Below the pieces are notes generated by a model. The model made no database searches, had not been told where the DNA came from, and saw only the letters and a program-made list of their open reading frames with translations. From an uncultured Methanosarcinales archaeon (GTDB lineage Archaea; Nanobdellota; Nanobdellia; Woesearchaeales; GW2011-AR4), in NCBI GenBank assembly GCA_964650285.1, contig CAZYSP010000001.1, forward strand, positions 13,169 through 77,168: a stretch of DNA of 64,000 nt, read 5' to 3'. Numbering within the stretch: the first letter of the stretch is position 1; each line of letters begins with the position of its first letter. Shown piece by piece: positions 10,400-60,293 of this stretch. The position numbers were made by a program, and so were the translations under genes.

Positions 10400-10532
10400 C
10401 GGGCTGTGCCAGAGCGAACTTAAGCCAAAATACTAATTTTAATATAAGATTTTTACATACTTTTGCCCACCCCACCTCCCCGTGAATTGCGAGCGACTCG
10501 CAGTCGCTCGTCGCGTTCACTAGGCGCAGCCC
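10400..10532. mobile_element. 133-nt intergenic element 'A' (cGGGCTGTGCC ... GGCGCAGCCC): 10-nt terminal inverted complement, 7-bp flanking direct repeat TAGATAA; MITE-like or structured ncRNA
   Basis: Termini GGGCTGTGCC (10401-10410) and GGCGCAGCCC (10523-10532) are fully complementary, including one G·U pair. TAGATAA sits at 10393-10399 and 10533-10539. An internal GC hairpin is at about 10484-10510. Its 5' 30 nt and a C-rich 3' block match element B at 53212..53352. Confidence 0.55.
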
Positions 10533-28345: not shown

Positions 28346-28443
28346 GTACAATAAATAATATTTCAATAAAAGAGTTCCAATAATAAAAATTTCAATAAAT
28401 AAAAAATACAATAATAAAAAAACAATATCAATAAAAAATAATA
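28346..28443 (+). repeat. AT-rich modular intergenic repeat (family M-a/M-b copy)
   Basis: 'GTACAATAAATAATATTTCAAT...AAAAAATACAATAATAAAAAAACAATATCAATAAAAAATAATAAA' matches the copies at 14552, 18508 and 60784. Confidence 0.45.
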
Positions 28444-28589
28444 AAAAACATCAATAGCGACGCAAAACCAACGATTATTTAATAATAATATTTCAATGTT
28501 AAAAAGATATTATGTATAAAATAAAATAATGAGTTAACAAATAATTGTGAATCATAAGATAAAAATTCAATGAATAAAAAATAAATAAA
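28444..28589 (+). repeat. Conserved intergenic element with GC cores (M-c/M-d copy 1): ...CATCAATAGCGACGCAAAACC...AAAATAAAATAATGAGTTAACAAATAATTGTGAATCATAAGATAAAAATTCAATG...
   Basis: Near-identical blocks recur at 40345..40478 and 60294..60420, each running up to the start codon of a + strand gene. Confidence 0.6.
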
Positions 28590-29717: not shown

Positions 29718-29799
29718 AATGATTAAAGTATGTAAATTAAGTTTTAATATGGCTTTATATAATTTAAACCTACGAAATCATTAATATTAAAAATTTAAA

Positions 29800-31335: not shown

Positions 31336-31343
31336 TAAGAGGT

Positions 31344-32777
31344 TTATTTTTCTTCCCACTTCAATATTGGTTTGCGAGCAGCAAGTACTGCATCTAATCT
31401 TTTTACAGGGGTTGTGGAAGGGGCGTTTTTTAGTAAATCGGGGTTTTGTTCTGCTTCCTGCTTTATTTTTATCATTGCTTCTGCAAATTTATCCATGGTT
31501 TGTTTTGACTCTGTTTCTGTTGGCTCTATCATTATTGCTCCATGGATAATTAATGGGAAGTAGATTGTTGGAGCATGAAAGCCGTAGTCCAATAAGCGCT
31601 TTGCAATATCTATTGTTGTTATGTTATTTGGCATGTTTTTGTCAGATAATACAAATTCATGCTTGCAGATAGTATCGTAGGGAAGATCGTAATGTTTTTT
31701 TAGCTTTGACATAAGGTAATTTGCATTCAGTACAGCGTTTTCTGCTACTTGTCTTAGACCTTCTGCACCGAGAGATTTAATATATGTATAGGCTTTTACT
31801 AAAACATTGAAGTTTCCATAAAAAACCCTAACCTGGCCAATGGAATTTTTTAAATTATAATCGAGGTAATAATTATCATTTTTCTTATTAATTAATGGTG
31901 TAGGTAAGTAATCTACTAATTCTTTAATGACGCCTACTGGACCTGAGCCTGGACCACCGCAGCCATGAGGGGTGGAAAAGGTTTTATGCAGATTAAGATG
32001 AACAATATCAAAACCCATGTCTGCAATCTTTACAATTCCGAGTATTGCATTAGCATTAGCGCCATCACAGTAGAATAATGAGCCATTGTCGTGCAGGATT
32101 CTTGCTATTTCCAGGATGTTTTTGTCAAATATACCTAAAGTATTTGGGTTTGTTAACATTAATCCTGCAACATCCTTAGTCATGTGTTTCTTTAAATCTT
32201 CTAAATCAATAATACCTTCATTGTTTGATTTGATTTGTATGGCTTCAAATTCACATAAAGCTGCAGAAGCAGGATTTGTTCCATGAGCTGAGTCAGGGAT
32301 TAGAATTTTGTTTCTTTTTTCATTTTTTATTTCAAAATATTTTTTTATGATCATTACTCCTGTAAGCTCGCCATGTGAGCCAGCTGCTGGTTGTAAAGTA
32401 AACCTTTGCATGCCAGTAATTTCGCACAAATCTTTTTCTAATTCATAAATAAGTTGTAAAGCACCCTGATTTAATTCCGGGGCAAGAGGATGTATCGCAG
32501 TAAATCCTGGAAGTTTTGCTATATCCTCATTTATTTTAGGATTGTACTTCATTGTGCATGAGCCTAGAGGATAAAATCCATCATCAACTCCAAAATTTCT
32601 TTTTGATAATTCTGTATAATGCCTGACTACATCAACTTCAGAAAGTTCTGGAAGCTCTAATTCAGTTCTAAGCAAAGATTTTGGTATTAAATCTGCTTTT
32701 TCTGGTACATCTAATTCTGGAAGCTCAACTCCTGTTCTTCCTTTTGATGTTTTTTCAAAAATTAATTTCATTTTCAA
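31344..32777 (-). CDS. gcvPB: Glycine dehydrogenase (decarboxylating) subunit 2
   Basis: PLP-lysine region '[24 protein letters not shown]'. Confidence 0.9.
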
Positions 32778-32887
32778 TAAATTTTATTTTCAATTATTTT
32801 GTTTACAATAAATTTTTTAAATTAATCAATAATAATTATTTTTATTTCAATGATTTTTTTGTATTATATAATTAAATTAATGAAACT

Positions 32888-34210
32888 TTAATCTAACTCA
32901 TTTGACAAAACCTCAACTAATTTATCAATATCCTCTTTTGAGTGCATCTCAGTAATACATACGAGCAAGTGATTTTTTAGTTCTGGATAATATTTTCCCA
33001 AATCAAGTCCTGGAACAATATTGTTTTCCTGCATTTTTGAGATTAATTTTTCAATATCATTGCATTTTATGACAAATTCATTAAAAAATGGAGAGGTAAA
33101 AGGTGCAGCAAAATTATCAATATTTTTTATTTTTTCAAAGGTATAGTGTGCTTTTTGTAAATTAATGTTTGCTAAAGTTTTTAGCTGCTTGCCCAGCATT
33201 GAGAGATAAACTGTTGCAGCAAGAGCCATTAATGCCTGGTTGGTGCATATGTTGGAAGTTGCTTTTTCTCTTCTGATATGCTGCTCGCGGGCCTGTAAAG
33301 TCAATACAAAACCTTTTTTTCCTTCAGTATCATTAGTAATACCGACTATTCTGCCAGGAATCTTTCTCGTATGCTCTTCCTTAACAGCCATGAATCCAAA
33401 AGCAGGGCCTCCGAAGTTTAATGGAATTCCAAAAGACTGGCCGTCTCCAACAACAATATCTGCATTACCAGACTTTGATATTCCAAGAGAAGCAGCTTCA
33501 ACAATGCAAGTTACTAATAGTGATTTATTTTCATGAGTAATTTTTTCAATCTCATCCATGTTTTCTATGCAGCCAAAGAAATTAGGGTTCTGGACAATAA
33601 CTGCTGAGGTGTTATCATCAATTTCATTTTTTAAATTTTCAATATCTATGATTCCGTTATTATAATTAATCTCAACACAATTAATATTATGCATTCTACA
33701 GTATGTCTGCACAACTTTTCTGTATTCTGGATGTATTGTTTTTGGAAGGATAATTTTGTTTTTGTTTGTAATATTATGTGACATAAATACTGCTTCTGCC
33801 AGTGCTGTTGAGCCGTCATACATTGATGCGTTTGCAACATCCATTCCTGTAAGTTTACAAATGTATGTCTGAAATTCAAAAATTGATTGTAATGAGCCCT
33901 GGCTTATCTCCGGCTGGTAAGGTGTGTAAGCGGTATAGAATTCTGACCTCGATATTATATGGTCAACAACTGCTGGTATAAAATGGTTATAGCAACCAGC
34001 CCCTAAGAAATTTTTCATTAATTTGTTTTTTTTGGAAATTTTTTCAGTTTTTTTCCTTACCTCAATTTCAGATAATTTAGTTGAGATTTTTAACTGCTCT
34101 TTTGATATTAAATTTTTATCAACATCACTGAAAAGGTTTAGAATATTATCTACACCAATTTCCTTAAGCATTTCATTTTTTTCTGGTTCTGTGTTTGAGA
34201 TGTAGTCCAT
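32888..34210 (-). CDS. gcvPA: Glycine dehydrogenase (decarboxylating) subunit 1
   Basis: A typical P-protein alpha-subunit N-terminal half ('YTPYQPEISQGSLQ'). Confidence 0.9.
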   Translation of the reverse strand: MDYISNTEPEKNEMLKEIGVDNILNLFSDVDKNLISKEQLKISTKLSEIEVRKKTEKISKKNKLMKNFLGAGCYNHFIPAVVDHIISRSEFYTAYTPYQPEISQGSLQSIFEFQTYICKLTGMDVANASMYDGSTALAEAVFMSHNITNKNKIILPKTIHPEYRKVVQTYCRMHNINCVEINYNNGIIDIENLKNEIDDNTSAVIVQNPNFFGCIENMDEIEKITHENKSLLVTCIVEAASLGISKSGNADIVVGDGQSFGIPLNFGGPAFGFMAVKEEHTRKIPGRIVGITNDTEGKKGFVLTLQAREQHIRREKATSNICTNQALMALAATVYLSMLGKQLKTLANINLQKAHYTFEKIKNIDNFAAPFTSPFFNEFVIKCNDIEKLISKMQENNIVPGLDLGKYYPELKNHLLVCITEMHSKEDIDKLVEVLSNELD

Positions 34211-34593
34211 TATTCTTTCTCAATTATTTTTGTATATTCTTCAGCAGATATCATGCTGTTAAGCTCATTTTTGTCTGCAAGCTTTATTTTAAAGAGCCAT
34301 CCTTTGTTGTATGGATCATTGTTTATTATCTCAGGATGGTCTTTGAGCTGCTCATTTATCCTGATTATTTCTCCGGAAACAGGGGCAAATATGTCTGAAA
34401 CAGACTTAACGGATTCTATTGTGGCAGCTGTTTTATTTTGTGTAACAGTTTTCCCTATTTCAGGGAGCTCAACAAAAACAATGTCAGTTAAGGCATTTTG
34501 TGCAAAATCCGTAATTCCTATTGTGGCTATGTCATTTTCTATTTTTACCCATTCATGCTCTTTGGTGTATTTCAATTCTTTTGGATTCTCCAT
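34210..34593 (-). CDS. gcvH: Glycine cleavage system H protein (lipoyl carrier)
   Basis: Lipoyl-lysine motif 'ESVKSVSDIFAPVSGEI'. 127 aa. Confidence 0.9.
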   Translation of the reverse strand: MENPKELKYTKEHEWVKIENDIATIGITDFAQNALTDIVFVELPEIGKTVTQNKTAATIESVKSVSDIFAPVSGEIIRINEQLKDHPEIINNDPYNKGWLFKIKLADKNELNSMISAEEYTKIIEKE

Positions 34594-34594
34594 T

Positions 34595-35704
34595 TCATTT
34601 TCCTCCTTTATACTTGTAAAAAGGCTTTTTTACAATTACAGCATTGTAGAATTTGTCCCTTATTTTTATAGTTATTTTATTTCCAATTTGAGAATGCTCT
34701 TTTTTTATTAATGCCATACCCAATGGTTTTCTAAATGTAGGTGAGAAAGTTCCGGATGTAACATAACCTATGTTTTTATCATGCACAAAAACTTCGTAAT
34801 TTGCCCGGGGAATGCCTCTGTCAATCATTTCAAATGCAACAAGTATTTTTTCTGTTCCATACTTTATTTGTTTTTCAAGAATTGATTTACTGATAAAATC
34901 TTTTTCCAGGTTTACAGCCCAGTCTAAGCCTGATTCAATTGGAGTTATCTTCTCGCTTATCTCATGGCTGTAAAGGGGATAACATGCCTCGATCCTTAAG
35001 GTGTCTCTGGCGCCTAAACCAATAGGTTTTAATCCCTGGTCTTTTCCTACTTCCATTAATGAATTCCACATTTTTTCTGCTTCTTTTGATGAAAAATATA
35101 ATTCAAAACCATCTTCTGCAGTATAGCCTGTCCTGGAGACTAGTGTTTTTATACCTATAATATCTGCTTCAATGAAATGGAATCTTTTAGGAAGTTCTGC
35201 AGTGGTTAATTTTTTCAATATTTTTTCAGCCAAAGGTCCCTGAAGGTCCAGCTTTCCGGTTTTTTCTGATATGTTGCTTATTTCCACATTAAATTTATCT
35301 GCATGGCTTTTGATCCAATTAAAATCCTTGTCTATATTGCCTGCATTTACTACAAGCATAAACTCATTTTCTTTTAATTGGTAAACAAAAATATCGTCTA
35401 CAGTTGTGCCATTCTCATAACACATCAAAGAATACATGGCTTGTCCTGGGTATATTTTATTAAGATTGCTGACAATAAGCTTCTGGAGGAATGATATTGA
35501 ATCCGGACCCTGAATAATAAATTCTCCCATGTGGCATACATCAAACAAACCTGCTTTTTCTCTTGTTGCTGTATGCTCATCCATTACATTTGTGTAATAT
35601 ACAGGCAGGTGCCAGCTGTTAAAAGCTACCATCTTGGCTCCTAACTGCTCGTGCACATGAGCTAAAGGAGTTTTTTTTAGAGAAATTATGATTATTCCAA
35701 ACAC
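34595..35704 (-). CDS. gcvT: Glycine cleavage system T protein (aminomethyltransferase)
   Basis: 'KKTPLAHVHEQLGAKMVAFNSWHLPVYY' is the canonical GcvT N-terminus. Confidence 0.9.
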   Translation of the reverse strand: MFGIIIISLKKTPLAHVHEQLGAKMVAFNSWHLPVYYTNVMDEHTATREKAGLFDVCHMGEFIIQGPDSISFLQKLIVSNLNKIYPGQAMYSLMCYENGTTVDDIFVYQLKENEFMLVVNAGNIDKDFNWIKSHADKFNVEISNISEKTGKLDLQGPLAEKILKKLTTAELPKRFHFIEADIIGIKTLVSRTGYTAEDGFELYFSSKEAEKMWNSLMEVGKDQGLKPIGLGARDTLRIEACYPLYSHEISEKITPIESGLDWAVNLEKDFISKSILEKQIKYGTEKILVAFEMIDRGIPRANYEVFVHDKNIGYVTSGTFSPTFRKPLGMALIKKEHSQIGNKITIKIRDKFYNAVIVKKPFYKYKGGK

Positions 35705-35788
35705 CCCAGCTTTCAGAAAAGAGTTCGTTTAAATAATTTTTGAATATTATGATTGTGTTAAAAATTTCAAGAACAAATATTGTGCTTT

Positions 35789-37345
35789 TCAGCATTTAAC
35801 TGCATATGTCCTTCCATTGATGCCTTTCCTGTAGTTTTCCCATGATTTCCTAAACAGTCTTTTTCCCCACGGTGTTGGATAGTCGCAGGTAATGCAGGCT
35901 GTGCATAAATTATTTTTAGGCAGTCCTATTGCTTTTACCAGCCCTTCCACTGTCTGGTATATTAATGACTCTGCTCCTGCATCTTTTGCAATCTTCTGGC
36001 AGGTTTTTTTGCTGATATTGCTGGTAACAGGCTTTTTTTCATATTTGGGAACAAGAAGCTCAGAAACAGTTGACATATCAATGCCATAAAAACAAGGACC
36101 CCTGATAGGCGGACATGTAACTCTCAGATGAACTTCTTTTGCGCCGCCTTCTTCTTTCAGGTAGCGGACAAGCTGCATTGTTGTGCTGCCGCGGACAATG
36201 CTGTCATCGACAAGCAGGACTTTTTTTCCTCCAAGAACATTTTTTAATGCCGTATATTTGTTCTGCACTTTGTCGTGCCTTGAGCCGCCTTCTATGAAGG
36301 TTCTTCCAACATACCTGTTCCTTATAATCCCTTCCTTAGAGGGGATTCCCAGCTCATAAGCATAAGCATCTCCTGCTGCTTTTGCTGTATCCGGAACAGG
36401 AACAACAATCAGATCCTTATCTATTCTTTGAGTTTCGAGTTTTGCTAATTCCTTGCCAAGGTTTGTCCTTGCAGTATATACTGACTTATTATCCAAAACT
36501 GAACCGACATTTGAGAAGTAAACCCATTCAAACATGCAGTGAGCTTTTCTTTTGGTCTGCGTGTATTTTCTAACCTCGACCTTGCCTTTTTTGATATGTA
36601 TCATATACCCTGGCTGCAACGGCTTTATATTCTTTATTCCGCAGTTTATCAAAGCAACGCTTTCGGAAGCAACCATAAATGTATTTTTGTCTTTGCTGAA
36701 TCCATAAACAAGAGGCCTAAAGCCGTAAGGGTCTCGGGCAACAGCAATTTCTCCCTCTGCGTTTATGAAAGCAATGTTGTAACAGCCGTCAAACTTTTTT
36801 GCCAGTTCTGAGAAAACCTTAACTAAATCCGGCCTTTTATCACCCTTTAATTGTCTTGCTAAAAAATGCATTATTATCTCTGTATCATTATCATAAATCA
36901 TATGATAATCTTCTCTTTTACTCAAAAGCTCCTGTTTTAACTGTGAGAAATTCGCAAGGTTGCCGTTGAGTCCAAAAGCAAACCATTTCCATTTTCTTCC
37001 ATGATGCCTTTCAAATGGCTGTGCAACACCTACATCTTCAGTTCCGGATGTTGCATAACGTACATGCCCTATTCCTTTTTTTCCTGCATATTTTTTAAAT
37101 ATTTCAAAGCTTTTTCTCTTATTGCTTGTCTTAAAGACCTCGTTTACGTGGCCTAAGTCCTTATAAGTGGCCAGTAGCTGGGACCTGTTTGGGTTGAATG
37201 TTGTAACACCTGCACTTAATTGACCTCTGTTTTGTAAGTTCAGCATCAGTTTGTATAGGTAGAACAAGGCTTTGTTTGCGGCATCTCCATCTTGTTTGAT
37301 ATAAACAGCGCAGATGCCGCACTCGTCATGTATGTCTTCCAGCAT
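35789..37345 (-). CDS. purF: Amidophosphoribosyltransferase
   Basis: An N-terminal Ntn-type Cys after a short propeptide ('MLEDIHDE|CGI'). PRTase motif 'VLLVDDSIVRGSTT'. C-terminal 'CTACITCDYP' Fe-S Cys cluster. Confidence 0.85.
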   Translation of the reverse strand: MLEDIHDECGICAVYIKQDGDAANKALFYLYKLMLNLQNRGQLSAGVTTFNPNRSQLLATYKDLGHVNEVFKTSNKRKSFEIFKKYAGKKGIGHVRYATSGTEDVGVAQPFERHHGRKWKWFAFGLNGNLANFSQLKQELLSKREDYHMIYDNDTEIIMHFLARQLKGDKRPDLVKVFSELAKKFDGCYNIAFINAEGEIAVARDPYGFRPLVYGFSKDKNTFMVASESVALINCGIKNIKPLQPGYMIHIKKGKVEVRKYTQTKRKAHCMFEWVYFSNVGSVLDNKSVYTARTNLGKELAKLETQRIDKDLIVVPVPDTAKAAGDAYAYELGIPSKEGIIRNRYVGRTFIEGGSRHDKVQNKYTALKNVLGGKKVLLVDDSIVRGSTTMQLVRYLKEEGGAKEVHLRVTCPPIRGPCFYGIDMSTVSELLVPKYEKKPVTSNISKKTCQKIAKDAGAESLIYQTVEGLVKAIGLPKNNLCTACITCDYPTPWGKRLFRKSWENYRKGINGRTYAVKC

Positions 37346-37497
37346 TTTACCCCAACAGATTATAACGGATTGTGATTTATAAACGTTTCCCTTTTTAAAA
37401 CTTTGTTAGGTTACCCAAAAAGGCAAGATTAAGACTGAATGAAACAAAAATAATTTAAAGAAAGTTAGATAATTTATCCCATATATTGTGTGGTTTT

Positions 37498-38793
37498 ATG
37501 AATATTTTGTTAATTGGCAACGGCGCAAGAGAGCATGTAGTAGCAGAGACTCTAAAGAAAAATAAAGCTGTTAAGTTATATTCTTTTATGAAGTCAAAAA
37601 ATCCAGGGATTGCTTCTTTATCTGAAGATGTTTTGGTTGGTTCTTATTCTGATCTTGATGGTATAAAAGATTTTGCAGAGAAAAATAAAATTGATTTTGC
37701 CTTTATAGGCCCTGAAGACCCATTAAATAATGGAGTAGTTGATGCATTAAAAGACATTGGAATTGATGCTGTTGGCCCGACAAAGAGCATGGCCAGGTTA
37801 GAAACAAGTAAATCATTTACAAGAGAATTGTTAAAAAAATATGATATTGAAGGTAATATCAAGTTCAAGGTTTTTAGTAAAGCTGATGGGATAAATGGTT
37901 TTCTTGATGAAATTGATGAAGTTGTTGTAAAGCCGGATGGCTTAACTGGCGGGAAAGGAGTTAAAGTGCAGGGTGACCATTTCAATACAAAAGAAGAAGC
38001 AGCTGAATACTGCAAAGAAGTTTTAGAAAATGATTCATCTGTAATAGTTGAAGAAAAACTGGATGGAGAGGAATTTTCATTGCAATGTTTAACAGACGGG
38101 AAAACTGTTGTTGGAGCACCAGTTGCGCAGGACCATAAAAGGGTTTATGATGATGATAAAGGGCCTAATACCGGAGGCATGGGATCTTATTCCTGCGAGA
38201 ATCATTTATTGCCATTTCTTAAGAAAGAGCATGTTGATAAAGCACTGGAAATAACAAAAAAGGTTGCTGATGCTATTTATCAAGAAACAGGTTTGTATTA
38301 TAAAGGAGTTATGTATGGTGGTTTTATTTTAACAAAAGAGGGTATTAAGCTTTTGGAGTATAATGCAAGACTTGGAGATCCAGAGGCTATGAATGTTCTG
38401 CCTTTGCTTAAGACAGATTTTGCAGCTATATGCCAGGCAATAATTGTGCAGGAACTTGATAGAGTTAAGGTTGAATTTGAGAAAAAAGCTACAGTATGCA
38501 AGTATGTTGTGCCAGAAGGTTATCCTGAAAATCCAGTTAAGAATGAAAAAATAACAGTAAAAATTCCTGAAAAAACAAGAATATACTATGCATCTGTTGA
38601 CCAAAAAGAAGATGGATTATATATGACTGGCTCAAGGGCAATTGCATTTTTAGGCATTGGAAATAATTTAGATGAAGCAGAAAAGGTTGTAGAAGAGTCT
38701 GTTTGTAATGTAAAAGGCAAGGTATTTCACAGGAAAGATATTGGGACTAAGGGATTGATTGAGAAAAGGATAAAGCATGTAAAAAGTTTTTAG
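37498..38793 (+). CDS. purD: Phosphoribosylamine--glycine ligase
   Basis: 'MNILLIGNGAREH' (PurD N-terminus) and an ATP-grasp core. The ORF track begins at a TTG 4 codons upstream. Confidence 0.85.
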   Translation: MNILLIGNGAREHVVAETLKKNKAVKLYSFMKSKNPGIASLSEDVLVGSYSDLDGIKDFAEKNKIDFAFIGPEDPLNNGVVDALKDIGIDAVGPTKSMARLETSKSFTRELLKKYDIEGNIKFKVFSKADGINGFLDEIDEVVVKPDGLTGGKGVKVQGDHFNTKEEAAEYCKEVLENDSSVIVEEKLDGEEFSLQCLTDGKTVVGAPVAQDHKRVYDDDKGPNTGGMGSYSCENHLLPFLKKEHVDKALEITKKVADAIYQETGLYYKGVMYGGFILTKEGIKLLEYNARLGDPEAMNVLPLLKTDFAAICQAIIVQELDRVKVEFEKKATVCKYVVPEGYPENPVKNEKITVKIPEKTRIYYASVDQKEDGLYMTGSRAIAFLGIGNNLDEAEKVVEESVCNVKGKVFHRKDIGTKGLIEKRIKHVKSF

Positions 38794-38794
38794 G

Positions 38795-39367
38795 ATGAAA
38801 CAGACATTAAAACAGGAAATTTCTGGAAAAAGAAAAACACTTAGTAAAGAAGAAGTTATTAAGAAAAGCAAGTTAATAAAGAAAAATCTATGTTCTTTAT
38901 CTGAATTTAAGAAAGCCAGGAATATTATGTTCTATGTTTCTTTTAATAATGAGGTTGATACGCATGAGGTTATTAAAGAACTGTTAAGCGAGAAAGAAAA
39001 AAATATTATTGTTCCATATGTATTAAAAAACAATCCAATCCTGCAACTTTCTGAAATAAGAGATTTTAATGAATTAGAACCTAAAAGTTTTGGTATTTTA
39101 GAGCCGAGAGAACTTTACATTAGAGAATTCAATCCTAATAAAATTGATTTGGTTATATTGCCTGGCTTGGTGTTTGACAAAAAAGGATGCAGAGTAGGCT
39201 ATGGATATGGATATTATGACAGGTTTCTTAAAAAAGTTAAGAAGGTGAAAAAAATCGGGCTTGCTTTTGAATTGCAGTTAGTTGATGAAATTCCTAAAGA
39301 AAAGCATGATGTTCCTGTCGATATTCTGGTTACTGAAAAAAGAGTTCTCAAATGTAGTGGGAAATAA
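38795..39367 (+). CDS. 5-formyltetrahydrofolate cyclo-ligase (MTHFS)
   Basis: 'ILPGLVFDKKGCRVGYGYGYYDRFL' is the 5-FTHF cyclo-ligase signature. Confidence 0.75.
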   Translation: MKQTLKQEISGKRKTLSKEEVIKKSKLIKKNLCSLSEFKKARNIMFYVSFNNEVDTHEVIKELLSEKEKNIIVPYVLKNNPILQLSEIRDFNELEPKSFGILEPRELYIREFNPNKIDLVILPGLVFDKKGCRVGYGYGYYDRFLKKVKKVKKIGLAFELQLVDEIPKEKHDVPVDILVTEKRVLKCSGK

Positions 39368-39370
39368 AAA

Positions 39371-40246
39371 ATGCCTAAGTTAATGCAAAGAAAACCGGAT
39401 TGGTTCAAGATTAAACTGCCAACTGGAGAAAAGTATAGTGAAGTAAAAGGTTTAGTAAAGACAAATAGATTGAATACTATATGCGAGGAAGCTAAATGCC
39501 CAAATATTTCTGAGTGTTGGAGTCATGGAACTGCTACTTTTCTTATTTTAGGGCATGTTTGTACAAGATATTGCAGCTATTGTAATGTTAAGACTGGAAA
39601 ACCTTTAGATGTTGATGCTGATGAAGGAAAAAAAGTTGCTGACAGTGTTAAGAAACTGGGCTTAAGGTATGTTGTTGTAACTTCTGTAACAAGGGATGAT
39701 TTAGAAGATGGTGGTGCTTCATTGTATGTTGATGTAATAAAAGAAATTAAGAAAGTAAGCTCATGTAAAGTTGAGTTATTGATTCCGGATTTGAAAACAA
39801 AAGATGGAATTGATGTTGATGCTTTAAAAAAAATAATTGATGCAAAACCAGATGTTCTTGGTCATAATATTGAAGCAGTAAGAAGTGTTTTTTCAGAAGT
39901 AAGAAAAGGTGGTAATTATGATGTTTCATTGGAGTTATTAAAAAAAATAAAAGAAATTGATGCTGATATGAGAACAAAATCGGGGATTATGGTTGGTTTT
40001 GGTGAAAGTTTTGATGAGATTAAAGAAACAATGCAGGATTTAAGGGATGTTGGTGTTGATTTTTTAACAATAGGGCAGTATTTGCAGCCTTCTGAGAAGC
40101 ATGCTAAAATCATCAGGTTTTACAGGCCAGAAGAATTTGAAGAATTAAAGAAAATCGGTTTGGAAATGGGATTTAAGCATGTTGAAGCTGGGCCATTGGT
40201 TAGGAGCTCTTACAGGGCTGATAAGCTGAATTCATTGATACAATAA
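39371..40246 (+). CDS. lipA: Lipoyl synthase
   Basis: 'CEEAKCPNISECW' (auxiliary cluster) and 'CTRYCSYCNV' (radical-SAM CxxxCxxC). Confidence 0.9.
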   Translation: MPKLMQRKPDWFKIKLPTGEKYSEVKGLVKTNRLNTICEEAKCPNISECWSHGTATFLILGHVCTRYCSYCNVKTGKPLDVDADEGKKVADSVKKLGLRYVVVTSVTRDDLEDGGASLYVDVIKEIKKVSSCKVELLIPDLKTKDGIDVDALKKIIDAKPDVLGHNIEAVRSVFSEVRKGGNYDVSLELLKKIKEIDADMRTKSGIMVGFGESFDEIKETMQDLRDVGVDFLTIGQYLQPSEKHAKIIRFYRPEEFEELKKIGLEMGFKHVEAGPLVRSSYRADKLNSLIQ

Positions 40247-40344
40247 AAAAATTCCAATAAAGTTAAGAAACATAATACTGATTATTTGATTAAGATAAAA
40301 ATTAATTTACAATTAGAAAATAAAAACGCAATAAAAATAAAATA

Positions 40345-40478
40345 AAAAACATCATTACTGCGACGCAAAATGCTTGATTTATTAATAATAAAATTTCAAT
40401 GTCCAAAAGAAATAAAGTTAAAAATAAAATAATGAATTAATAAATAATTGTGAATCATAAGATAAAAATTAATGAAAA
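40345..40478 (+). repeat. Conserved intergenic element with GC cores (M-c/M-d copy 2)
   Basis: 'AAAAACATCATTACTGCGACGCAAAATGCTTGATTTATTAATAATAAAATTTCAATG...AAAATAAAATAATGAATTAATAAATAATTGTGAATCATAAGATAAAAATTAATG', immediately 5' of the lplA ATG. Confidence 0.6.
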
Positions 40479-41279
40479 ATGAAATGCAGATTTATTGATA
40501 CTGGGTTTAATGATGCTTTTTTTAATATGGCTATAGATGAGGCTATTTTGCATTATTGTAAAATTCCTGTTTTAAGGGTTTATGGCTGGAAACCTGCTGG
40601 AGTATCTATTGGATACAATCAGGATTTACATAAAGAAATAAACATTGATTACTGCAAAAAAAACAATATAGATGTAGTAAGGAGAGTAAGTGGTGGTAAA
40701 GCGGTTTTTCATGACAAGGAACTAACTTACAGTTTCATTATTCCAGAGAGCATTAATTTATTACCAAGAGAAATTAATGAATCATACAAAGAAATAGCAA
40801 AAGCATTGGTTTTGGCATTTGAAAAATTAGGCATTAAAGCGGAAATAAAAAAAATTCCAGAGAGGATTGCAACTTCTATATGCTTTAACAGCTCAAACTG
40901 GTATGAGTTGTTGATTAATGGGAAAAAAATTTCTGGTTCTGCACAAAGAAGGATGGATGGAAAGATACTGCAGCATGGCTCAATACTTTTAGATTTTGAT
41001 TATGAGAAAAATAGCTTGTTATTTAATTCTAATAATTTAATTGACAATATTAATAATTTAAGAAAAAGGATTACATCATTAAAAAAAGAATTGAATAAAT
41101 CAATAGATTACAGTGAGCTTGGTTCTGCATTAAAATCTGGTTTTAGGGAGAATTTTGATTTTGATTTAATTGATGATTCTTTAACAAATGAAGAGATTAT
41201 TTTGGCTGAGAAATTAAGGAAAGAGAAGTATTTGACAGAAGAATGGAATTACAAATTGATATGGGAAAATTTAATATAA
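40479..41279 (+). CDS. lplA: Lipoate-protein ligase A (BPL/LPL catalytic domain)
   Basis: 'RRVSGGKAVFHD','GKKISGSAQRR' are LplA/LipB-family motifs. Confidence 0.8.
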   Translation: MKCRFIDTGFNDAFFNMAIDEAILHYCKIPVLRVYGWKPAGVSIGYNQDLHKEINIDYCKKNNIDVVRRVSGGKAVFHDKELTYSFIIPESINLLPREINESYKEIAKALVLAFEKLGIKAEIKKIPERIATSICFNSSNWYELLINGKKISGSAQRRMDGKILQHGSILLDFDYEKNSLLFNSNNLIDNINNLRKRITSLKKELNKSIDYSELGSALKSGFRENFDFDLIDDSLTNEEIILAEKLRKEKYLTEEWNYKLIWENLI

Positions 41280-41378
41280 ATTTTCCCTAGTTCAGTAAAG
41301 TTTTCACTACGTTCAAACTTTATAAACTAACAAAAACTATTTAAATAAAGTTGAATTTGGGTTTTTCAGGGTGGTTTA

Positions 41379-42680
41379 ATGTATGATATGATGGCTTCTA
41401 TTGAAAAGTCTGATTCTAAGGTATATGAGATTATAAAAAAAGAAGTTGAGAGGATGAAGAATGGTGTTGAGTTAATTCCTTCTGAGAATGTTGTCAGCAA
41501 AGCTGTGCTGCAGGCAATGGGTTCTGTTTTAACTAATAAATATTCAGAAGGCTATCCTCACAAGAGGTATTATGGCGGAAATGAGATTATTGATATGGCA
41601 GAAGACTTGGCTATTGAAAGAGCCAAGAAGCTTTTTGGAGCAGAGCATGTTAATGTACAGCCATATTCAGGAAGCCCTGCTAACCAGGCTGTTTTCTTTG
41701 CTTTGCTGAACTTAAAGGATACTTTTATGGGTTTTGACTTAAGCGCAGGCGGTCATTTAACGCATGGAAGCCCTGTTAATTTTTCCGGTAAAAACTATAA
41801 TTGTGTTGCTTATAATGTTGATAAGGAAACTGAGTTACTAGATTATGATAAGATTAAGAAGCAGGCAGAAAAAGTAAAGCCCAAGATGATTATTTCCGGG
41901 TTAACTGCTTATCCAAGGAAAATAGATTTTAAGGCTTTTCAGGAAATTTGTGATTCTGTTGGTGCTTATCATATGGCTGATATTGCGCATATAGCTGGAT
42001 TATGCGCTACTGGTGTTCATGAAAATCCTGTTAGGTATACTGATATTGTTACAACCACTACACATAAAACTTTGCGCGGTCCAAGAGGAGCAATGATAAT
42101 GTGCAAGATTGAGGATAAATTTGATAAGAATGGGAAGAAAAATCTTGCGCAGAAAATTGATTCTGCTGTTTTTCCGGGCTTACAGGGAGGTCCTCATGAC
42201 AATGTTAATATTGCAAAAGCAGTTGCATTTGGAGAGGATTTAAAGCCTGAGTTTAAGGTTTATTGCAGGCAGATTGTAAAAAATGCCAAGGTTTTGGCAG
42301 ATTCTTTGATGAGTAATGGTTTAGAGCTTGTAACTAACGGGACTGACAACCATCTGATGGTCATCAAGCTTGTAAACAAAGGTTTGACTGGTAAGGGGAA
42401 AGAGGTGCAGAATGCATTAGATAAAGCAGGAATAACTATAAATAAGAATACTGTACCATATGAGCCTGGAAGTCCGTTTCATCCTTCAGGAATAAGGTTA
42501 GGGACACCAGCTGTAACAACAAGAGGAATGAAAGAAAGTGAAATGAAAGTTATTGGTAAAAGCATAGCAAAAGTAATTGATAATTTAGATGATAATAAGG
42601 TTATTGGAAATGTTAAAAAGGATATACTGGAATTATGCAAAAGGTTTCCGCTTTATCCGGGATTTGATATTTTAAAATGA
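41379..42680 (+). CDS. glyA: Serine hydroxymethyltransferase
   Basis: 'LIPSENVVS','NKYSEGYP','TTTTHKTLRGPRG' (PLP-Lys). Confidence 0.9.
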   Translation: MYDMMASIEKSDSKVYEIIKKEVERMKNGVELIPSENVVSKAVLQAMGSVLTNKYSEGYPHKRYYGGNEIIDMAEDLAIERAKKLFGAEHVNVQPYSGSPANQAVFFALLNLKDTFMGFDLSAGGHLTHGSPVNFSGKNYNCVAYNVDKETELLDYDKIKKQAEKVKPKMIISGLTAYPRKIDFKAFQEICDSVGAYHMADIAHIAGLCATGVHENPVRYTDIVTTTTHKTLRGPRGAMIMCKIEDKFDKNGKKNLAQKIDSAVFPGLQGGPHDNVNIAKAVAFGEDLKPEFKVYCRQIVKNAKVLADSLMSNGLELVTNGTDNHLMVIKLVNKGLTGKGKEVQNALDKAGITINKNTVPYEPGSPFHPSGIRLGTPAVTTRGMKESEMKVIGKSIAKVIDNLDDNKVIGNVKKDILELCKRFPLYPGFDILK

Positions 42681-43519
42681 CTGCAAAAATAATTGATGGG
42701 AAGGCTTTGTCATTAAAGTTTCTTAATGATGTTAGGAAGAAGGCTGCTAATGTAAAACCCGGGTTGGCTATTGTTATTGTAGGGAATAATCCTGCTTCTG
42801 AGATTTATGTAGGCCTTAAGGAGAAAAAATCCAAGGAAATCGGATTTTATGTTGAAAGGTATAATCTGGATGAAAATGTTAAACAGGATGAATTGCTTAA
42901 GTTAGTTGATGAATTGAACCAGAACAGGAAAATAAATGGGTTTATTGTTCAACTGCCATTGCCTAAGCATATTGATGAGAATCTTGTAATTGATTCAATA
43001 CTGCCTCACAAGGATGTAGATGGATTTACTCCTGTTAGTTTAGGAAATTTGGTTAATGACAATAATTTATTACTGCCGGCTACTGCCAGGGCTTGTTTAG
43101 AGCTGATTAAGTCTACTGGTGTTGAGATTAAAGGCAAGAATGCAGTTGTTGTTGGCAGAAGCAATATTGTTGGAAAGCCAACTGCTTTACTTTTATTGCA
43201 GGAAAATGCTACTGTTACTGTTTGCCATTCAAAAACTAAAGATCTTAAGGAATTTACTAAAAATGCTGATATTCTGGTTGTTGCGGTTGGAAAAGCAAAG
43301 ATGCTCAAGAAAAACATGGTCAAAAAAGGTGCAGTAGTAATTGATGTCGGAATAAACAGAACTGCTTTTGGAATTGTTGGAGATGTTGATTTCGAAAACG
43401 TAAAAGAAGTTTCTGGTTTTATTACTCCGGTTCCCGGTGGAGTTGGACCAATGACAATTGCTATGCTTCTTGATAATACTTTGAAAGCTAGGGAGTTGAG
43501 GAAGGGGCTTAAGTTTTAG
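42677..43519 (+). CDS. folD: Bifunctional 5,10-methylene-THF dehydrogenase/methenyl-THF cyclohydrolase
   Basis: 'KIIDGKALS','LAIVIVGNNPASEIYV','VVGRSNIVGKP','GGVGPMTIAML'. Confidence 0.9.
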   Translation: MTAKIIDGKALSLKFLNDVRKKAANVKPGLAIVIVGNNPASEIYVGLKEKKSKEIGFYVERYNLDENVKQDELLKLVDELNQNRKINGFIVQLPLPKHIDENLVIDSILPHKDVDGFTPVSLGNLVNDNNLLLPATARACLELIKSTGVEIKGKNAVVVGRSNIVGKPTALLLLQENATVTVCHSKTKDLKEFTKNADILVVAVGKAKMLKKNMVKKGAVVIDVGINRTAFGIVGDVDFENVKEVSGFITPVPGGVGPMTIAMLLDNTLKARELRKGLKF

Positions 43520-43537
43520 AGAAAAGAATTAATAATG

Positions 43538-44023
43538 TTAAGGTTTTAATACATATGAAGAGAAAGCTTTAGATATTCTGCTGTTATAAATGGTTTCAGA
43601 TAAAGAATTCAAAAATTTGCTTCTTGGTATATAATACCACTTACCACTCATTTCAAGTTTGTTCCATTTTTCTTTATCTGAATCTTTATCTGAATTCTTA
43701 TATGCAACCTCAAATCTAGCCAAACCAGTGTCTATACCTAATGAAGTAATTATAAATCCCAGAGTAAGATTATAATCACCATTTATGGCACTTGTAAATG
43801 ACAGTAACTTAGCAATATCTGAACCTATAGCAACAACATCTAATGCGCGTGTTCTAACAAAAGTCTCCAAGTTTGGTTTAGGTATTGGTATATTCATTTT
43901 AATATGAGGTAATCCTACTGAATATTTAAAATTATTGAAAACTACTTTATCAAATTCCACCCCCAAAACCTTTATAAACTTCCATAATTTCTCTTTATTA
44001 CCGGTGGTTGTGTTGTTAAACAT
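43538..44023 (-). CDS. Hypothetical protein (start uncertain)
   Basis: A 187-aa minus-strand ORF fills the 416-nt folD-purN gap. Its N-terminal 26 codons are antisense to the purN 5' region, so the start is set at Met27 (44023). No motif recognised. Confidence 0.3.
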   Translation of the reverse strand: MFNNTTTGNKEKLWKFIKVLGVEFDKVVFNNFKYSVGLPHIKMNIPIPKPNLETFVRTRALDVVAIGSDIAKLLSFTSAINGDYNLTLGFIITSLGIDTGLARFEVAYKNSDKDSDKEKWNKLEMSGKWYYIPRSKFLNSLSETIYNSRISKAFSSYVLKP

Positions 44024-44654
44024 CGGGGTACTGGCATCTACGAGGGCAAGTGATTTGCAGGCTATAATTGATGCTATAGAAGCCAAGGAGCTTAATGTCA
44101 AGATTTCTGTTGTTGTTTCTGATAAGAAAGATGCTTATGCTCTGGAAAGGGCTAAGAAGCATGGTATTGAGGCTGTTTTTATTGATGCCAAGGCAGAAGA
44201 TATTCTTGCTGTTAAGGATAAAGAGGAAAGAAGAGAGGCTTTTGACAGAAAAGTTGCAGCAGAACTGGAAAAACATGATGTTGAGCTGATTCTGGCTATT
44301 GGCTATATGAGAATCATAGGCCAGTGGCTTGTGGATAAATTCAGAAACAAGATAATAAATATTCATCCTTCTTTACTGCCGGCATTTGCAGGCGGAATGG
44401 ACAAGGATGTCCACAAAGATGTTCTTGAATCAGGTGTAAAGGAAACAGGATGTACACTGTTTTTTATTGATGAAACTGTTGATGCAGGACCGGTAATATT
44501 CAAGAAAAAGGTTGATGTAGAAGAAAATGAAACTGTAGATACATTAAAAGAAAAAGTGCAAAAAGCAGAGCAGGAAGTACTAATAAGGGCAATAAAATTA
44601 TATGATGGAGGAAAGCTAAAAGTTGAGAATGGCAAGGTGGAAATTGTAGAATGA
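44013..44654 (+). CDS. purN: Phosphoribosylglycinamide formyltransferase
   Basis: '(M)LNIGVLASTRASDLQAIIDA' aligns with the PurN N-terminus (IAVLASGRGSNLQAII). 'INIHPSLLPAFAG','GCTLFFIDETVDAGPVI'. The start is probably the TTG at 44013 (or GTG 44004/44010); the ATG at 43935 would add an atypical 26-aa extension. Confidence 0.7.
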   Translation: MLNIGVLASTRASDLQAIIDAIEAKELNVKISVVVSDKKDAYALERAKKHGIEAVFIDAKAEDILAVKDKEERREAFDRKVAAELEKHDVELILAIGYMRIIGQWLVDKFRNKIINIHPSLLPAFAGGMDKDVHKDVLESGVKETGCTLFFIDETVDAGPVIFKKKVDVEENETVDTLKEKVQKAEQEVLIRAIKLYDGGKLKVENGKVEIVE

Positions 44655-46156
44655 AAACAGCATTAATATCAGTCTCAAACAAAACAGGCATTGTGGAATT
44701 TGCCCGCGGCTTAAAAAAATCAGGAATAAAAATACTGTCAACAGGCGGAACTGCTAAATTACTGAAGAAAAACAACATCAAAGTAACGCAGATTTCTAAA
44801 TACATAAGAAGCAAGGAAATGTTTGAAGGGAGAGTAAAAAGTTTACATCCAAAAATATATGCAGGAATCCTAGCTGTAAGAAAAAACAAAGAACATATGA
44901 AGGAATTAAAAAACAACAATATTGATCCAATAGACATTGTTGTTGTAAATCTTTACCCTTTTGAGGAAACTGTTGGGAAAAAAGCATCTTTTAAGCAAGC
45001 AATTGAAAATATTGACATTGGAGGCCCAACTTTAGTAAGGGCTGCTGCAAAAAACTTCCAGGATGTCGCAATCGTAGTTGATCCGGATGATTACAACGAT
45101 GTATTAAGAGGAAAAATAAGCAAAGAAAATCTGGCTTTAAAGGCTTTTGAGCATACTGCAAGGTATGGTGCAATAATAAACAATTATTTCAACAATAAAT
45201 TCGGGAGGAAATTCCCGGACACATTAAACTTAACTTTCAAAAAAGTGCAGGACTTAAGGTATGGTGAAAATCCGCACCAAAAAGGAGCCTTCTATAAAGA
45301 CCCTTTCATAGATGAATGCTGCATAACAAATGCAAAGCAGCTGCATGGGAAAGAATTATCTTACAATAATCTCTTAGACATGGAAAATGCTTTTGAATTG
45401 ATTAAAGAATTTACAACACCTAGTGTGGCTATAATAAAACACAATAATCCGTGCGGAATTGCTTCAAGAAAAACAATTAATGAGGCGTATAAAGCAGCAT
45501 TGGAAGCCGATCCGTTATCTGCTTTTGGCTCAATAGTAGCTTTGAACAGGAATTGCGACAAAAAAGCAGCCGAGGCAATAAAGCCCCATTTTGTAGAAGT
45601 GGTTATCTGCCCTAAATTTGATAAATATGCCTTAGACATATTAAAACAAAAAAAGAATGTAAGGCTTATGGAAACTGGTTCAATAACAAAGCCGTGTCCG
45701 GGTTATGCTATGACAAAAGTAACTGGGGGCTTGCTGATGCAGACAAGAGACCATATGAAGATATCTGAAAAAAATCTTAAGGTTGTGAGCAAAAGGAAGC
45801 CAACCAAAAAGGAAATAGAAGATATGATTTTTGCATTTAAGGTAAACAAGCATGTTAAATCCAATTCAATAGTTTTTGTAAAAAATAATGTAACAACGGG
45901 CATTGGTGCAGGACAGACATCAAGAGTGGATGCTGTTAAGATAGCTGCAGATAAATCTAAAGGTGCATCAAAAGACTCTGTAATGTCATCTGATGCTTTT
46001 TTTCCATTTAGGGATGGAATTGATGAAGCGGCAAAAGCCGGAATAACAGCAGTAATACAGCCAGGAGGCTCTATAAGGGATAAGGATGTAATAGATACTG
46101 TCAATGAATATAATATGGCAATGGTATTTACAGGCATCAGGTTGTTTAGGCATTAG
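44651..46156 (+). CDS. purH: Bifunctional AICAR transformylase / IMP cyclohydrolase
   Basis: An N-terminal MGS-like domain ('ALISVSNKTGIVEFA','STGGTAKLL') and a C-terminal AICARFT domain ('KHNNPCG','GIGAGQTSRVD'). 4-nt overlap with purN. Confidence 0.9.
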   Translation: MKTALISVSNKTGIVEFARGLKKSGIKILSTGGTAKLLKKNNIKVTQISKYIRSKEMFEGRVKSLHPKIYAGILAVRKNKEHMKELKNNNIDPIDIVVVNLYPFEETVGKKASFKQAIENIDIGGPTLVRAAAKNFQDVAIVVDPDDYNDVLRGKISKENLALKAFEHTARYGAIINNYFNNKFGRKFPDTLNLTFKKVQDLRYGENPHQKGAFYKDPFIDECCITNAKQLHGKELSYNNLLDMENAFELIKEFTTPSVAIIKHNNPCGIASRKTINEAYKAALEADPLSAFGSIVALNRNCDKKAAEAIKPHFVEVVICPKFDKYALDILKQKKNVRLMETGSITKPCPGYAMTKVTGGLLMQTRDHMKISEKNLKVVSKRKPTKKEIEDMIFAFKVNKHVKSNSIVFVKNNVTTGIGAGQTSRVDAVKIAADKSKGASKDSVMSSDAFFPFRDGIDEAAKAGITAVIQPGGSIRDKDVIDTVNEYNMAMVFTGIRLFRH

Positions 46157-46189
46157 ATTTATATATAACATATTTTTTTCTTTGGTAAA

Positions 46190-46450
46190 ATGGGCGAAAA
46201 AAAATATATATTACAGCATGACAGGCCTAATTGCATTGGATGTGGAGCTTGTGAGGCAGTTGCTCCTGATTTCTGGGAGATGAATGATGATGGCAAGTCT
46301 GATATCAAAGGGGGCAAACATCTTGACAATGAATGGCAGGAGCTTGAGATTGAAGAAAAGGACCTTGCAATAAATAAAGATGCAGCAGACTCATGCCCGG
46401 TTAATGTCATACATATAATCAAGAAGGGCAGTAAGGAGAAGATAATTTAA
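46190..46450 (+). CDS. Small single-cluster ferredoxin
   Basis: 'CIGCGACEAVAP...CPVNVI' is a ferredoxin-type Cys pattern. Confidence 0.55.
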   Translation: MGEKKYILQHDRPNCIGCGACEAVAPDFWEMNDDGKSDIKGGKHLDNEWQELEIEEKDLAINKDAADSCPVNVIHIIKKGSKEKII

Positions 46451-46498
46451 TTATTATTTCTGATTATAAAAACCTTAATAAATACATGTAGCTTATTT

Positions 46499-46696
46499 GT
46501 GAGTATGAAATGCCCTAAATGCAAATCAAGTAATGTAAAGATAGTTGATTATCTTAGTGCTAAGTGTATTAAATGCAATGATTGCGGTTTTGATGAAACT
46601 AAACAATATGATGTTTATCCTGAAGAAAAGAAATCACAAAAAGAGAAAGGAAAATACACACCGTACAAGGCCGGGGGATTTAAACGCACAAAATGA
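46499..46696 (+). CDS. Zinc-ribbon small protein
   Basis: 'CPKCKS...CIKCNDCG' Cys4 ribbon plus a basic tail. Its stop overlaps the ispH start by 4 nt. Confidence 0.4.
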   Translation: MSMKCPKCKSSNVKIVDYLSAKCIKCNDCGFDETKQYDVYPEEKKSQKEKGKYTPYKAGGFKRTK

Positions 46697-47601
46697 ATAT
46701 TATAGTTGCAAAGCATGCAGGATTTTGTTCTGGAGTTAAGAATGCAATAGATACAGCAGAAGAAGTTGCATCAGGGAAAAACGAGATTTATGTTTATGGG
46801 CAGCTGGTGCATAATGAAAGGGTCATCAGGGATTTAGAGAAAAAAGGGATAAAATTTGCAGATGATATTGAGGATATTCCTGAAAATTCTGTTACAGTGC
46901 TCAGGGCACATGGCGAACCCGGAACAACTTATGAAAAATTAAAGCAGAAGAATATTTTTGGTGATAAGCTTAAGGATGCCACATGCCCTTTAGTAAAATT
47001 AGTCCATAATGTTGCAATTAAACTGAAAGATAATGGCTATGAGGTAATAATATTCGGCAAGAAAGACCATCCGGAATCTATAGGCATAAGCTATTACATA
47101 AAAGGAAAAGATACATTAATTGTTGAAAATCCTGAAGATGCGTCTTCTGTTGTTGAGTACATAAATCAGCTTGAAAAAGCTGCTATAATTTCACAAACAA
47201 CAATGTCTGTTACAGGCTATAAGCAATTGATAGACAATATTAACAGGTTGTCTGATAAAAAATTTGAGCAATTGCATTTAAGCCTTAAAGATATTCGAAA
47301 TAATTTTGTTTTTGTGGATACAATATGCAATCCTACCAAGCAAAGACAATCAGATACAGAAGATATTGCAAAAAAGGCGGATGTAATGATTGTTATTGGC
47401 AGTAAAAAATCAAGCAATTCAAAAGAATTAGCAACAAAAAGTGAAGAGTTGGGTGTAGAAACTTACTTTATACAATCTTCAGAGCGGTTGAAAAAAGAGT
47501 GGTTTGAAAATAAAGAAAATGTTGGTGTTACTGCAGGAGCTTCTACTCCTGATATTACTATTAATGAGGTTGTTGAGAAGATAAAGAAGCTTACTTTGTA
47601 A
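46693..47601 (+). CDS. ispH: 4-hydroxy-3-methylbut-2-enyl diphosphate reductase (IspH/LytB)
   Basis: All three cluster Cys contexts ('GFCSGV','ATCPLV','DTICNPT'), 'VHNERV', 'AHGEP', 'DHPES', 'SQTTMS', 'VIGSKKSSNSKEL', 'GVTAGASTPD'. Confidence 0.85.
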   Translation: MNIIVAKHAGFCSGVKNAIDTAEEVASGKNEIYVYGQLVHNERVIRDLEKKGIKFADDIEDIPENSVTVLRAHGEPGTTYEKLKQKNIFGDKLKDATCPLVKLVHNVAIKLKDNGYEVIIFGKKDHPESIGISYYIKGKDTLIVENPEDASSVVEYINQLEKAAIISQTTMSVTGYKQLIDNINRLSDKKFEQLHLSLKDIRNNFVFVDTICNPTKQRQSDTEDIAKKADVMIVIGSKKSSNSKELATKSEELGVETYFIQSSERLKKEWFENKENVGVTAGASTPDITINEVVEKIKKLTL

Positions 47602-48046: not shown

Positions 48047-48209
48047 TTTTATTAAACAATTATTACGGAAACAAAAGAGAATTATTTTGTCTCCAGCATA
48101 GACAAGCTAGTGAATTCAAATTCGCCAGAATTTATGGCGAGCCACTAACCGATCTATCTCTTGATGGAATTTGGAATTATTAGGGGGTTTATAAATGTTA
48201 TTGAAAAGT

Positions 48210-48312
48210 AGCCCTGCCAGGACTTTCAAGCCATACCTTGCAAGATAACGGCGTTCGAACCTGGGTCTCCGGCTCCAAAGGCCGATATCCTTGACCGCTA
48301 GACTACAGGGCT
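48210..48312 (-). tRNA. tRNA-Gln (anticodon UUG) with a putative ~31-nt non-canonical intron in the T-loop
   Basis: Minus-strand read: AGCCCTG-TA-GTCT-AGCGGTCAA-GGAT-A-TCGGC-CTTTGGA-GCCGG-AGAC-CCAGG-TTCGAA[CGCCGTTATCTTGCAAGGTATGGCTTGAAAG]T-CCTGG-CAGGGCT. Acceptor, D, anticodon and T stems all pair once the bracketed insert is removed. Confidence 0.55.
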
Positions 48313-60124: not shown

Positions 60125-60155
60125 TCACCTCGCGCTATAAAATTATAAGTCGAGT

Positions 60156-60241
60156 GCGGGGGTGGCAGAGTCTGGTCAAATGTGCAAGGTTGAGGGCCTT
60201 GTCCTTTAGTGGGTGCGCGTGTTCAAATCACGTCCCCCGCA
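60156..60241 (+). tRNA. tRNA-Leu (anticodon GAG), long variable arm
   Basis: GCGGGGG-TG-GCAGAGTCTGGTCAAATGTGC-AAGG-TTGAGGG-CCTTG-[var arm TCCTTTAGTGGGTGCGC]-GTGTTCAAATCAC-GTCCCCCGC-A. The acceptor pairs perfectly and the anticodon loop reads TTGAGGG. Confidence 0.8.
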
Positions 60242-60293
60242 TTAAAAAAACAATCATAACGACGTAGGGCCTCGTAAAGCGACACACCCCAAG

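Follow-up and report, generated by a model that had tools for sequence, protein, structure and literature searches.

Between a phosphoglycerate-dehydrogenase-like gene and rps15, the stretch of DNA analysed here (64,000 nucleotides, hereafter the window) carries a sequence with every stem of tRNA-Gln(UUG) and 31 nucleotides (nt) too many in the T loop. The locus therefore raises the question of whether a working tRNA gene is interrupted by an intron at a non-canonical position, or whether the additional nucleotides have a different origin and a different fate. Below we describe the gene and its host, the structure of the junctions and the degree to which it is kept among related genes, and we then weigh the readings against each other.

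The interrupted tRNA-Gln(UUG) gene and its host

The gene occupies 48312..48209 on the minus strand and comprises 104 nt with the insert and the discriminator A included. Read on that strand, it consists of the acceptor strand AGCCCTG, the dinucleotide TA, a D arm made up of GTCT, AGCGGTCAA and GGAT, a single A, the anticodon stem TCGGC/GCCGG enclosing the loop CTTTGGA (anticodon TTG, 48278..48276), the variable loop AGAC, the T stem strand CCAGG, TTCGAA, the insert CGCCGTTATCTTGCAAGGTATGGCTTGAAAG, T, the second T stem strand CCTGG, the acceptor strand CAGGGCT and the discriminator A. The acceptor, D, anticodon and T stems are all present as an earlier note on this DNA had read them (AGCCCTG/CAGGGCT, GTCT/GGAT, TCGGC/GCCGG and CCAGG/CCTGG), and the T loop is indeed composed of TTCGAA, 31 nt and T. 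That note had located the gene at 48210-48312, which is the right place; its 3' end falls short by one base, as the discriminator A lies at 48209. The insert (48253..48223) separates T-loop positions 59 and 60. Both exons are contiguous, in the normal order and on one strand, and the gene is thus neither split nor permuted. CCA is not encoded in the 3' exon. The features of the locus are collected in Table 1. The TATA box is a putative promoter element, judging from a spacing that is usual in archaeal promoters, and the block GATAATTTTATAAAT is found at equal distance in the orthologous loci L010, L011 and L014.

Table 1. Features of the tRNA-Gln(UUG) locus, in window coordinates
Feature	Position	Strand	Basis and remarks
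TATA box TTTATAAA	48337..48344	-	Centre ~28 nt 5' of tRNA position 1; conserved GATAAT before it; sequence reading
5' exon, tRNA positions 1-59 (acceptor 5' strand, D arm, anticodon arm, variable loop AGAC, T stem 5' strand, T loop U54-A59)	48254..48312	-	ARAGORN cloverleaf after splicing; stem covariation in 18 genes
BHB central helix, exon strand U54 U55 C56 G57	48256..48259	-	Partner strand in the local MFE fold is UGAA, 48225..48228
31-nt intron CGCCGUUAUCUUGCAAGGUAUGGCUUGAAAG between positions 59 and 60	48223..48253	-	Removal restores the tRNA; missing from the syntenic ortholog L011
Intron inner hairpin GCCGU.AUCU / AGGU.AUGGC, loop UGCA	48230..48252	-	MFE fold; hairpin kept, with differing sequence, in related introns
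BHB central helix, intron strand UGAA	48225..48228	-	Followed by the bulge A48224, G48223 and U60 (48222); register kept in 43 of 53 distinct introns
3' cleavage site (predicted)	between 48223 and 48222	-	BHB register
3' exon (U60, T stem 3' strand CCUGG, acceptor 3' strand CAGGGCU, discriminator A)	48209..48222	-	Sequence reading and ARAGORN
T run (CTTTTC), likely transcription stop	48204..48207	-	Directly 3' of the discriminator; kept in orthologs; terminator role putative

When the 31 nt were deleted, ARAGORN called a 74-nt tRNA-Gln(ttg) with a normal cloverleaf, and removal of the insert restored the standard 7-nt T loop TTCGAAT. On the intact region the program made no call, even with anticodon-loop introns allowed and a lowered threshold. 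The Rfam tRNA model gave a partial match of 22.8 bits to the intact sequence, below the threshold of 29 bits, and its alignment broke in the T loop. The gene therefore behaves as had been foreseen, in that it folds as tRNA-Gln(UUG) only without the insert and is easily missed by default finders. ARAGORN was lenient on T-arm deletions, with calls in 147 of 3948 single deletions and, for the double deletions made in the ortholog L016, in 6034 of 11664. As this leniency is too great to fix intron boundaries, we took the boundaries from the 7-nt T loop, the BHB (bulge-helix-bulge) register and the intronless ortholog described below.

Over the whole window, the sole call by ARAGORN was a tRNA-Leu(GAG) at 60155..60242 on the plus strand, which lies inside the S13-S4-S11-RpoD...L13-S9 cluster and reached 48 bits by Rfam in a 300-nt scan. 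Whole-window Rfam scans returned no tRNA and missed this tRNA-Leu as well, which is an effect of the tool's filter and not a feature of the gene; we gave these negatives no weight. The GC-content peaks of the window were checked for more hidden tRNAs, and nothing tRNA-like was found beyond the two tRNAs. The other peaks correspond to coding regions and to one hairpin at 10444..10552 (minus strand). The latter is a G+C-rich element (up to 67%) in the 446 nt that separate an amino-acid-kinase gene from a YdjM-like gene, with a perfect 9-bp hairpin, CGAGCGACU/AGUCGCUCG, within a longer helix, a fold z-score of -2.5 and no match in Rfam.

The window (G+C ~34%) encodes Nop5, fibrillarin, diphthine synthase, an archaeal-type S15 and an archaeal ribosomal-protein/RpoD cluster. 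This gene content indicates that the host is an archaeon, in agreement with the archaeal setting that the earlier note had proposed for the intron. The S15 protein was found unchanged on contigs from marine metagenomes, and the closest rps15 relatives in a species-level genome collection belong to MAGs labelled Woesearchaeota or Nanoarchaeota. The labels of the related MAGs are inconsistent, as three are automatic 'Methanosarcinales' labels and one is bacterial. Woesearchaeota are placed in the DPANN group (Nanobdellati), and the host is probably an uncultured marine archaeon of the DPANN/Woesearchaeota group. We also noticed that the region 27326..47601 is rich in biosynthesis genes, unusually so for a DPANN-like archaeon: it holds purF, purD, purN, purH, two PurP-like (DUF1246/DUF1297) genes and guaA, as well as a full glycine cleavage system, SHMT, FolD, and lipoyl synthase and ligase. 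An IspH/LytB homolog is found at 46693..47601; this enzyme belongs to the non-mevalonate pathway and, to our knowledge, would not be expected in an archaeon.

The neighbouring rps15 (uS15) has a structured 5' leader of its own, with two conserved hairpins at 48067..48160 (minus strand), between a second TATA box (48188..48195) and the rps15 start codon (48046). P1 of the leader covaries over nine loci (AUAAGC/GCUUAU, AUGUGU/GCACAU, AUAGAC/GUCUAU and AUAGCU/GGCUAU) and contains a GGU/GCY step that is conserved and, at its apex, an extension whose length varies; P2 is GGAGACAAA/UUUGUUUCC. A MAFFT alignment of the leaders misplaced the short forms and was left out of the counting. The leader found no match in Rfam and may represent a third subtype of autoregulatory leader, archaeal S15 leaders having been described only for Halobacteria and Methanomicrobia (PMC7247131). 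The idea that the variable insert of the leader is a second BHB intron related to that of the tRNA was rejected, as in the folds this insert simply lengthens the apex of the hairpin and shows no staggered 3-nt bulges. The 10-mer AAGGTATGGC of the tRNA intron (48231..48240) recurs in the apical insert of the L017 rps15 leader, probably by chance given the number of comparisons.

Junction structure and its conservation in related genes

In a local fold of the T arm together with the insert, the T stem CCAGG/CCUGG forms an outer helix of 5 bp, and UUCG pairs with UGAA in a central helix of 4 bp. The MFE structure extends the latter, such that U54-G57(A58) pairs with (U)UGAA close to the 3' end of the insert, and what remains of the insert folds into a hairpin (Table 1). 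At the 3' site, AGU is left unpaired where the central helix gives way to the T stem, and forms a canonical 3-nt bulge with the junction between its G and its U. The 5' site, where AA is followed by the first C of the insert, is relaxed: the bulge is reduced to 2 nt when A58 pairs with the extra U, and in the alternative form AAC lies opposite this U in a 3x1 internal loop. Thus, the strict hBHBh' form is absent, and what is present is the relaxed BHB form, the 3' half of which is canonical. The BHB motif that the earlier note had looked for at the junctions was borne out in this relaxed form and with a canonical 3' bulge, and failed at the 5' site as a strict motif. The unconstrained MFE fold of the whole 104-nt precursor is not a cloverleaf and has -40.7 kcal/mol, against -40.5 kcal/mol for the fold with the BHB T arm.

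In archaeal BHB substrates, each cut falls two nt 3' of the 4-bp central helix. We took the cut register from the canonical 37/38 example and from what is established about the motif. For the tRNA-Gln insert, the rule sets one cut behind A59 and the other behind the final G of the insert. The junctions of the earlier note, namely between TTCGAA and C at one end and between AAAG and T at the other, are those predicted by the rule. Since the 5' site is not a strict 3-nt bulge, cleavage would need an endonuclease of relaxed specificity.

The identical 104-nt sequence was found in nine contigs from independent metagenome assemblies, and the tRNA-Gln gene with its insert is therefore not an assembly artefact. 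A tRNA-Gln(UUG) gene is located at the same place, upstream of rps15, in five of eight related genomes. One of them, L011, whose S15 is 85% identical to that of the window, has no insert, and its T loop TTCGAAT is the same as that of the predicted spliced product. The tRNA-Gln of L011 scores 68.8 bits in Rfam and differs from the exons of the window by compensatory changes at 7:66, 12:23 and 29:41. Two further orthologs, L010 and L014, carry unrelated inserts of 19 nt and 29 nt, respectively, at 59/60, both of which end in CGAAAG. The T-loop intron is absent from the remaining two: in L015 the insert is 21 nt long and is found at the canonical 37/38 site, and L016 has two inserts in the D arm with BHB-like junctions. 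Read by hand, the latter are an intron at 10/11, with the central helix CCGU/GCGG, and an intron in the D loop, with GGUC/GACA and an inner helix UUCUC/GAGAA. The position of the intron shifts between organisms with S15 identities of 79-85% to the protein of the window.

To cover a wider range of genes, we scanned JGI metagenome contigs with the pattern CCAGGTTCGAA-N(12-42)-TCCTGGCRGGGCTA. The scan yielded 60 loci with 53 distinct inserts of 19-42 nt at 59/60 of tRNA-Gln genes, in archaea from marine, sediment and groundwater samples. As the pattern fixed the exon side of the central helix, variation in this sample is one-sided only, and the sample is limited to genes with the T arm and acceptor sequence of the window type. 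UUCG was fully complemented by the four bases two nt before the 3' junction in 43 of the 53 inserts, compared with 1.9 of 53 in shuffles. The complements seen were CGAA, UGAA, CGAG, CGGA, UGGA and CGGG, and the other ten inserts match at three of the four bases. MFE folds with the outer helix, the central helix and a 3-nt 3' bulge were obtained for 36 of 53 (0.95 expected), and a strict BHB with both 3-nt bulges for 22 of 53 (0.25 expected). The motif is thus conserved across 53 distinct introns, while their sequences and their lengths vary. Homologous introns were found among them, that of L057 with four substitutions and those of L027 and L074 with extended helices. Together with the intronless L011, the 53 distinct introns at 59/60 in related tRNA-Gln genes corroborate the suggestion that the insert is a non-canonical T-loop intron.

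When the 59/60 insert was removed in silico, 28 of 57 constructs proved to be plain tRNA-Gln genes (18 CUG and 10 UUG); 18 constructs also carried an anticodon-loop intron, and 11 had further inserts. L025 and L058, which are the tRNA-Gln UUG and CUG genes of one genome, are both found on the 570-kb contig Ga0315295_10000003. Each has an anticodon-loop intron, and their 59/60 introns, ggagatgataaaaaatctcgcgaaag and tgagatgataaaaatctcgcgaaag, are near-identical. This likeness suggests either inheritance from before the divergence of the two isoacceptors or copying between the two genes.

The exons were assessed by aligning 18 related genes after in-silico splicing, and 98.7% of the cloverleaf cells were paired. 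Two-sided changes were seen at eight pairs, including all five pairs of the anticodon stem and the D-stem pair 12:24. None of 500 shuffles reached the observed covariation values, and slid controls lowered the paired cells to 31-48%. The search pattern had predetermined the sequence of the T arm and of the 3' acceptor strand, and neither is informative in this 18-gene comparison. The exons evolve as a tRNA cloverleaf, chance being excluded by these counts.

Fate of the insert

By analogy with the established archaeal pathway, we infer how the insert would be removed and by which enzymes. The tRNA-Gln gene would be transcribed from its own TATA box into a precursor, in which the T stem would serve as the outer helix, U54-G57 and the intron UGAA as the central helix, and the remaining intron would form a hairpin. 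EndA would then cleave behind A59 and behind the final G of the intron, two nt 3' of the central helix on each strand, and an RtcB-type ligase would join GGTTCGAA to TCCTGGCAGGGCTA at the exon junction, giving the normal T loop UUCGAAU. Finally, CCA would be added to the spliced tRNA-Gln. A Pfam scan of ~58 ORFs of the window detected neither EndA (tRNA_int_endo) nor RtcB domains, a result of little weight for a window of 64 kb.

Could the gene instead be a pseudogene, inactivated by a 31-nt insertion and giving no working tRNA? Standard finders do reject the intact sequence, and the 5' junction is not a strict BHB. Nevertheless, we regard this possibility as very remote, because a decaying gene would keep none of the features that are conserved here: an identical sequence in nine contigs from different samples, a conserved promoter and T run, compensatory exon substitutions with 98.7% of the cells paired across relatives, and a central helix in register for 43 of 53 different inserts at one bond, where 1.9 would be expected. 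A mature tRNA that retains the insert, either as an enlarged T loop or as an extra hairpin, is just as improbable. The insert forms a stable hairpin, as such a tRNA would require, but inserts among the relatives range from 19 to 42 nt and are unrelated in sequence, and their conserved parts are just those for recognition by the endonuclease, that is, the 4-nt complement of U54-G57 and the two bulge nucleotides. Close relatives, moreover, have the plain 7-nt loop. U54, U55 and C56 are required for the fold of the T loop and its contact with the D loop, and the pairing of U54-G57 would sequester all three of them.

Still harder to believe is that the insert leaves the transcript by a route other than EndA at a BHB, such as self-splicing, or that it is the footprint of a mobile element or an integration event. 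One may cite for it the relaxed 5' site and the endonuclease not being found among the ~58 ORFs of the window. Self-splicing, however, is excluded by the size of the insert, as 31 nt is far below that of group I and group II introns; flanking direct repeats and adjoining integrase genes are absent, and the conserved geometry is exactly that of BHB substrates. We therefore conclude with high confidence that the locus is a functional tRNA-Gln(UUG) gene with a 31-nt intron of the BHB class at 59/60.

Default tRNA finders are blind to such genes, so that genome bins seem to be without tRNA-Gln, and inferences on completeness and codon usage are distorted. The 53 introns at one bond, together with the syntenic orthologs that have the intron elsewhere or none at all, provide a comparative data set on gain, loss and constraint, and the relaxed 5' site predicts a broad-specificity endonuclease in the host lineage. 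It is attractive to speculate, albeit tentatively and with more doubt than conviction, that the 59/60 tRNA-Gln intron is one of a large uncatalogued intron lineage, common to the UUG and CUG genes and to many uncultured archaea, and gained, lost or moved (59/60, 37/38, 10/11 plus the D loop, or none) within one rps15-linked gene. If this is the case, the clade would be a second natural system, after Thermoproteales, for the study of BHB intron spread, and 'missing' tRNA-Gln genes in DPANN genome bins would be explained systematically. The breadth of the family and the changes of position within one orthologous gene seem to be uncatalogued so far, yet they fit known behaviour. The current understanding of archaeal tRNA splicing is unchanged by these results, which would not surprise a specialist and are of use for annotation and for studies of intron evolution.

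Comparison with known archaeal tRNA introns

Apart from the tRNA survey in PMC5829648, our literature search found no paper that describes Woesearchaeota tRNA introns. In that work, Kaneta et al. reported that DPANN EndAs with the L3 loop accompany increased disruption of tRNA genes, and also that for some DPANN genomes a complete tRNA set was not attained (PMC5829648). tRNAscan-SE 2.0 has dedicated models for non-canonical introns, which were trained on Crenarchaeota/Euryarchaeota and Thaumarchaeota (PMC8450103). The bond 59/60 is among the listed sites of non-canonical introns (PMC4090602). In ARMAN-2 (Candidatus Micrarchaeum acidiphilum), pre-tRNA-Cys(GCA) has a 59/60 intron with a relaxed hBH motif (Fujishima et al. 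2011, PMC3239211), and pre-tRNA-Pro(GGG) has introns at 53/54 and 59/60 (PMC3239211). The T-loop position is therefore unusual, as the earlier note had held, but less novel than it had implied, 59/60 being documented (PMC4090602, PMC3239211).

The closest parallel is with ARMAN-2, which shares with the window the 59/60 position in the T loop, a host of the DPANN type, a BHB relaxed on one side, and genes that default finders miss. The two differ in isoacceptor (Gln here, Cys and Pro in ARMAN-2) and in the sequence of the intron, which is unrelated, as well as in their hosts, a marine Woesearchaeota-like archaeon here and Micrarchaeota of acid mines there. In the window, unlike in ARMAN-2, it is at the 3' site, together with the outer helix, that the motif is canonical (HBh'-like). 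ARMAN-2 has an endonuclease of the epsilon2 type.

Compared with canonical 37/38 introns of the strict hBHBh' form, one of which is found in L015, the 59/60 intron has the same predicted enzymes and the same cut rule (two nt 3' of the 4-bp helix). It differs in being located in the T loop and not in the anticodon loop, in using the T stem and not the anticodon stem as the outer helix, and in its relaxed 5' bulge.

Non-canonical and multiple tRNA introns, 59/60 included, are known from Thermoproteales (Crenarchaeota) according to the studies cited in PMC4090602 (Sugahara et al. 2008, Fujishima et al. 2010). Within the scope of what is cited there, the archaea studied here resemble Thermoproteales in having BHB introns at many positions, with several per gene, and homologous introns in different tRNA genes. 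In the same accounts, the presence, absence and position of introns vary between close relatives, as they do in our rps15-linked orthologs. Thermoproteales belong to another phylum and have another endonuclease, (alpha-beta)2 with a Crenarchaea-specific loop. The sampling here covers the Gln UUG and CUG genes only.
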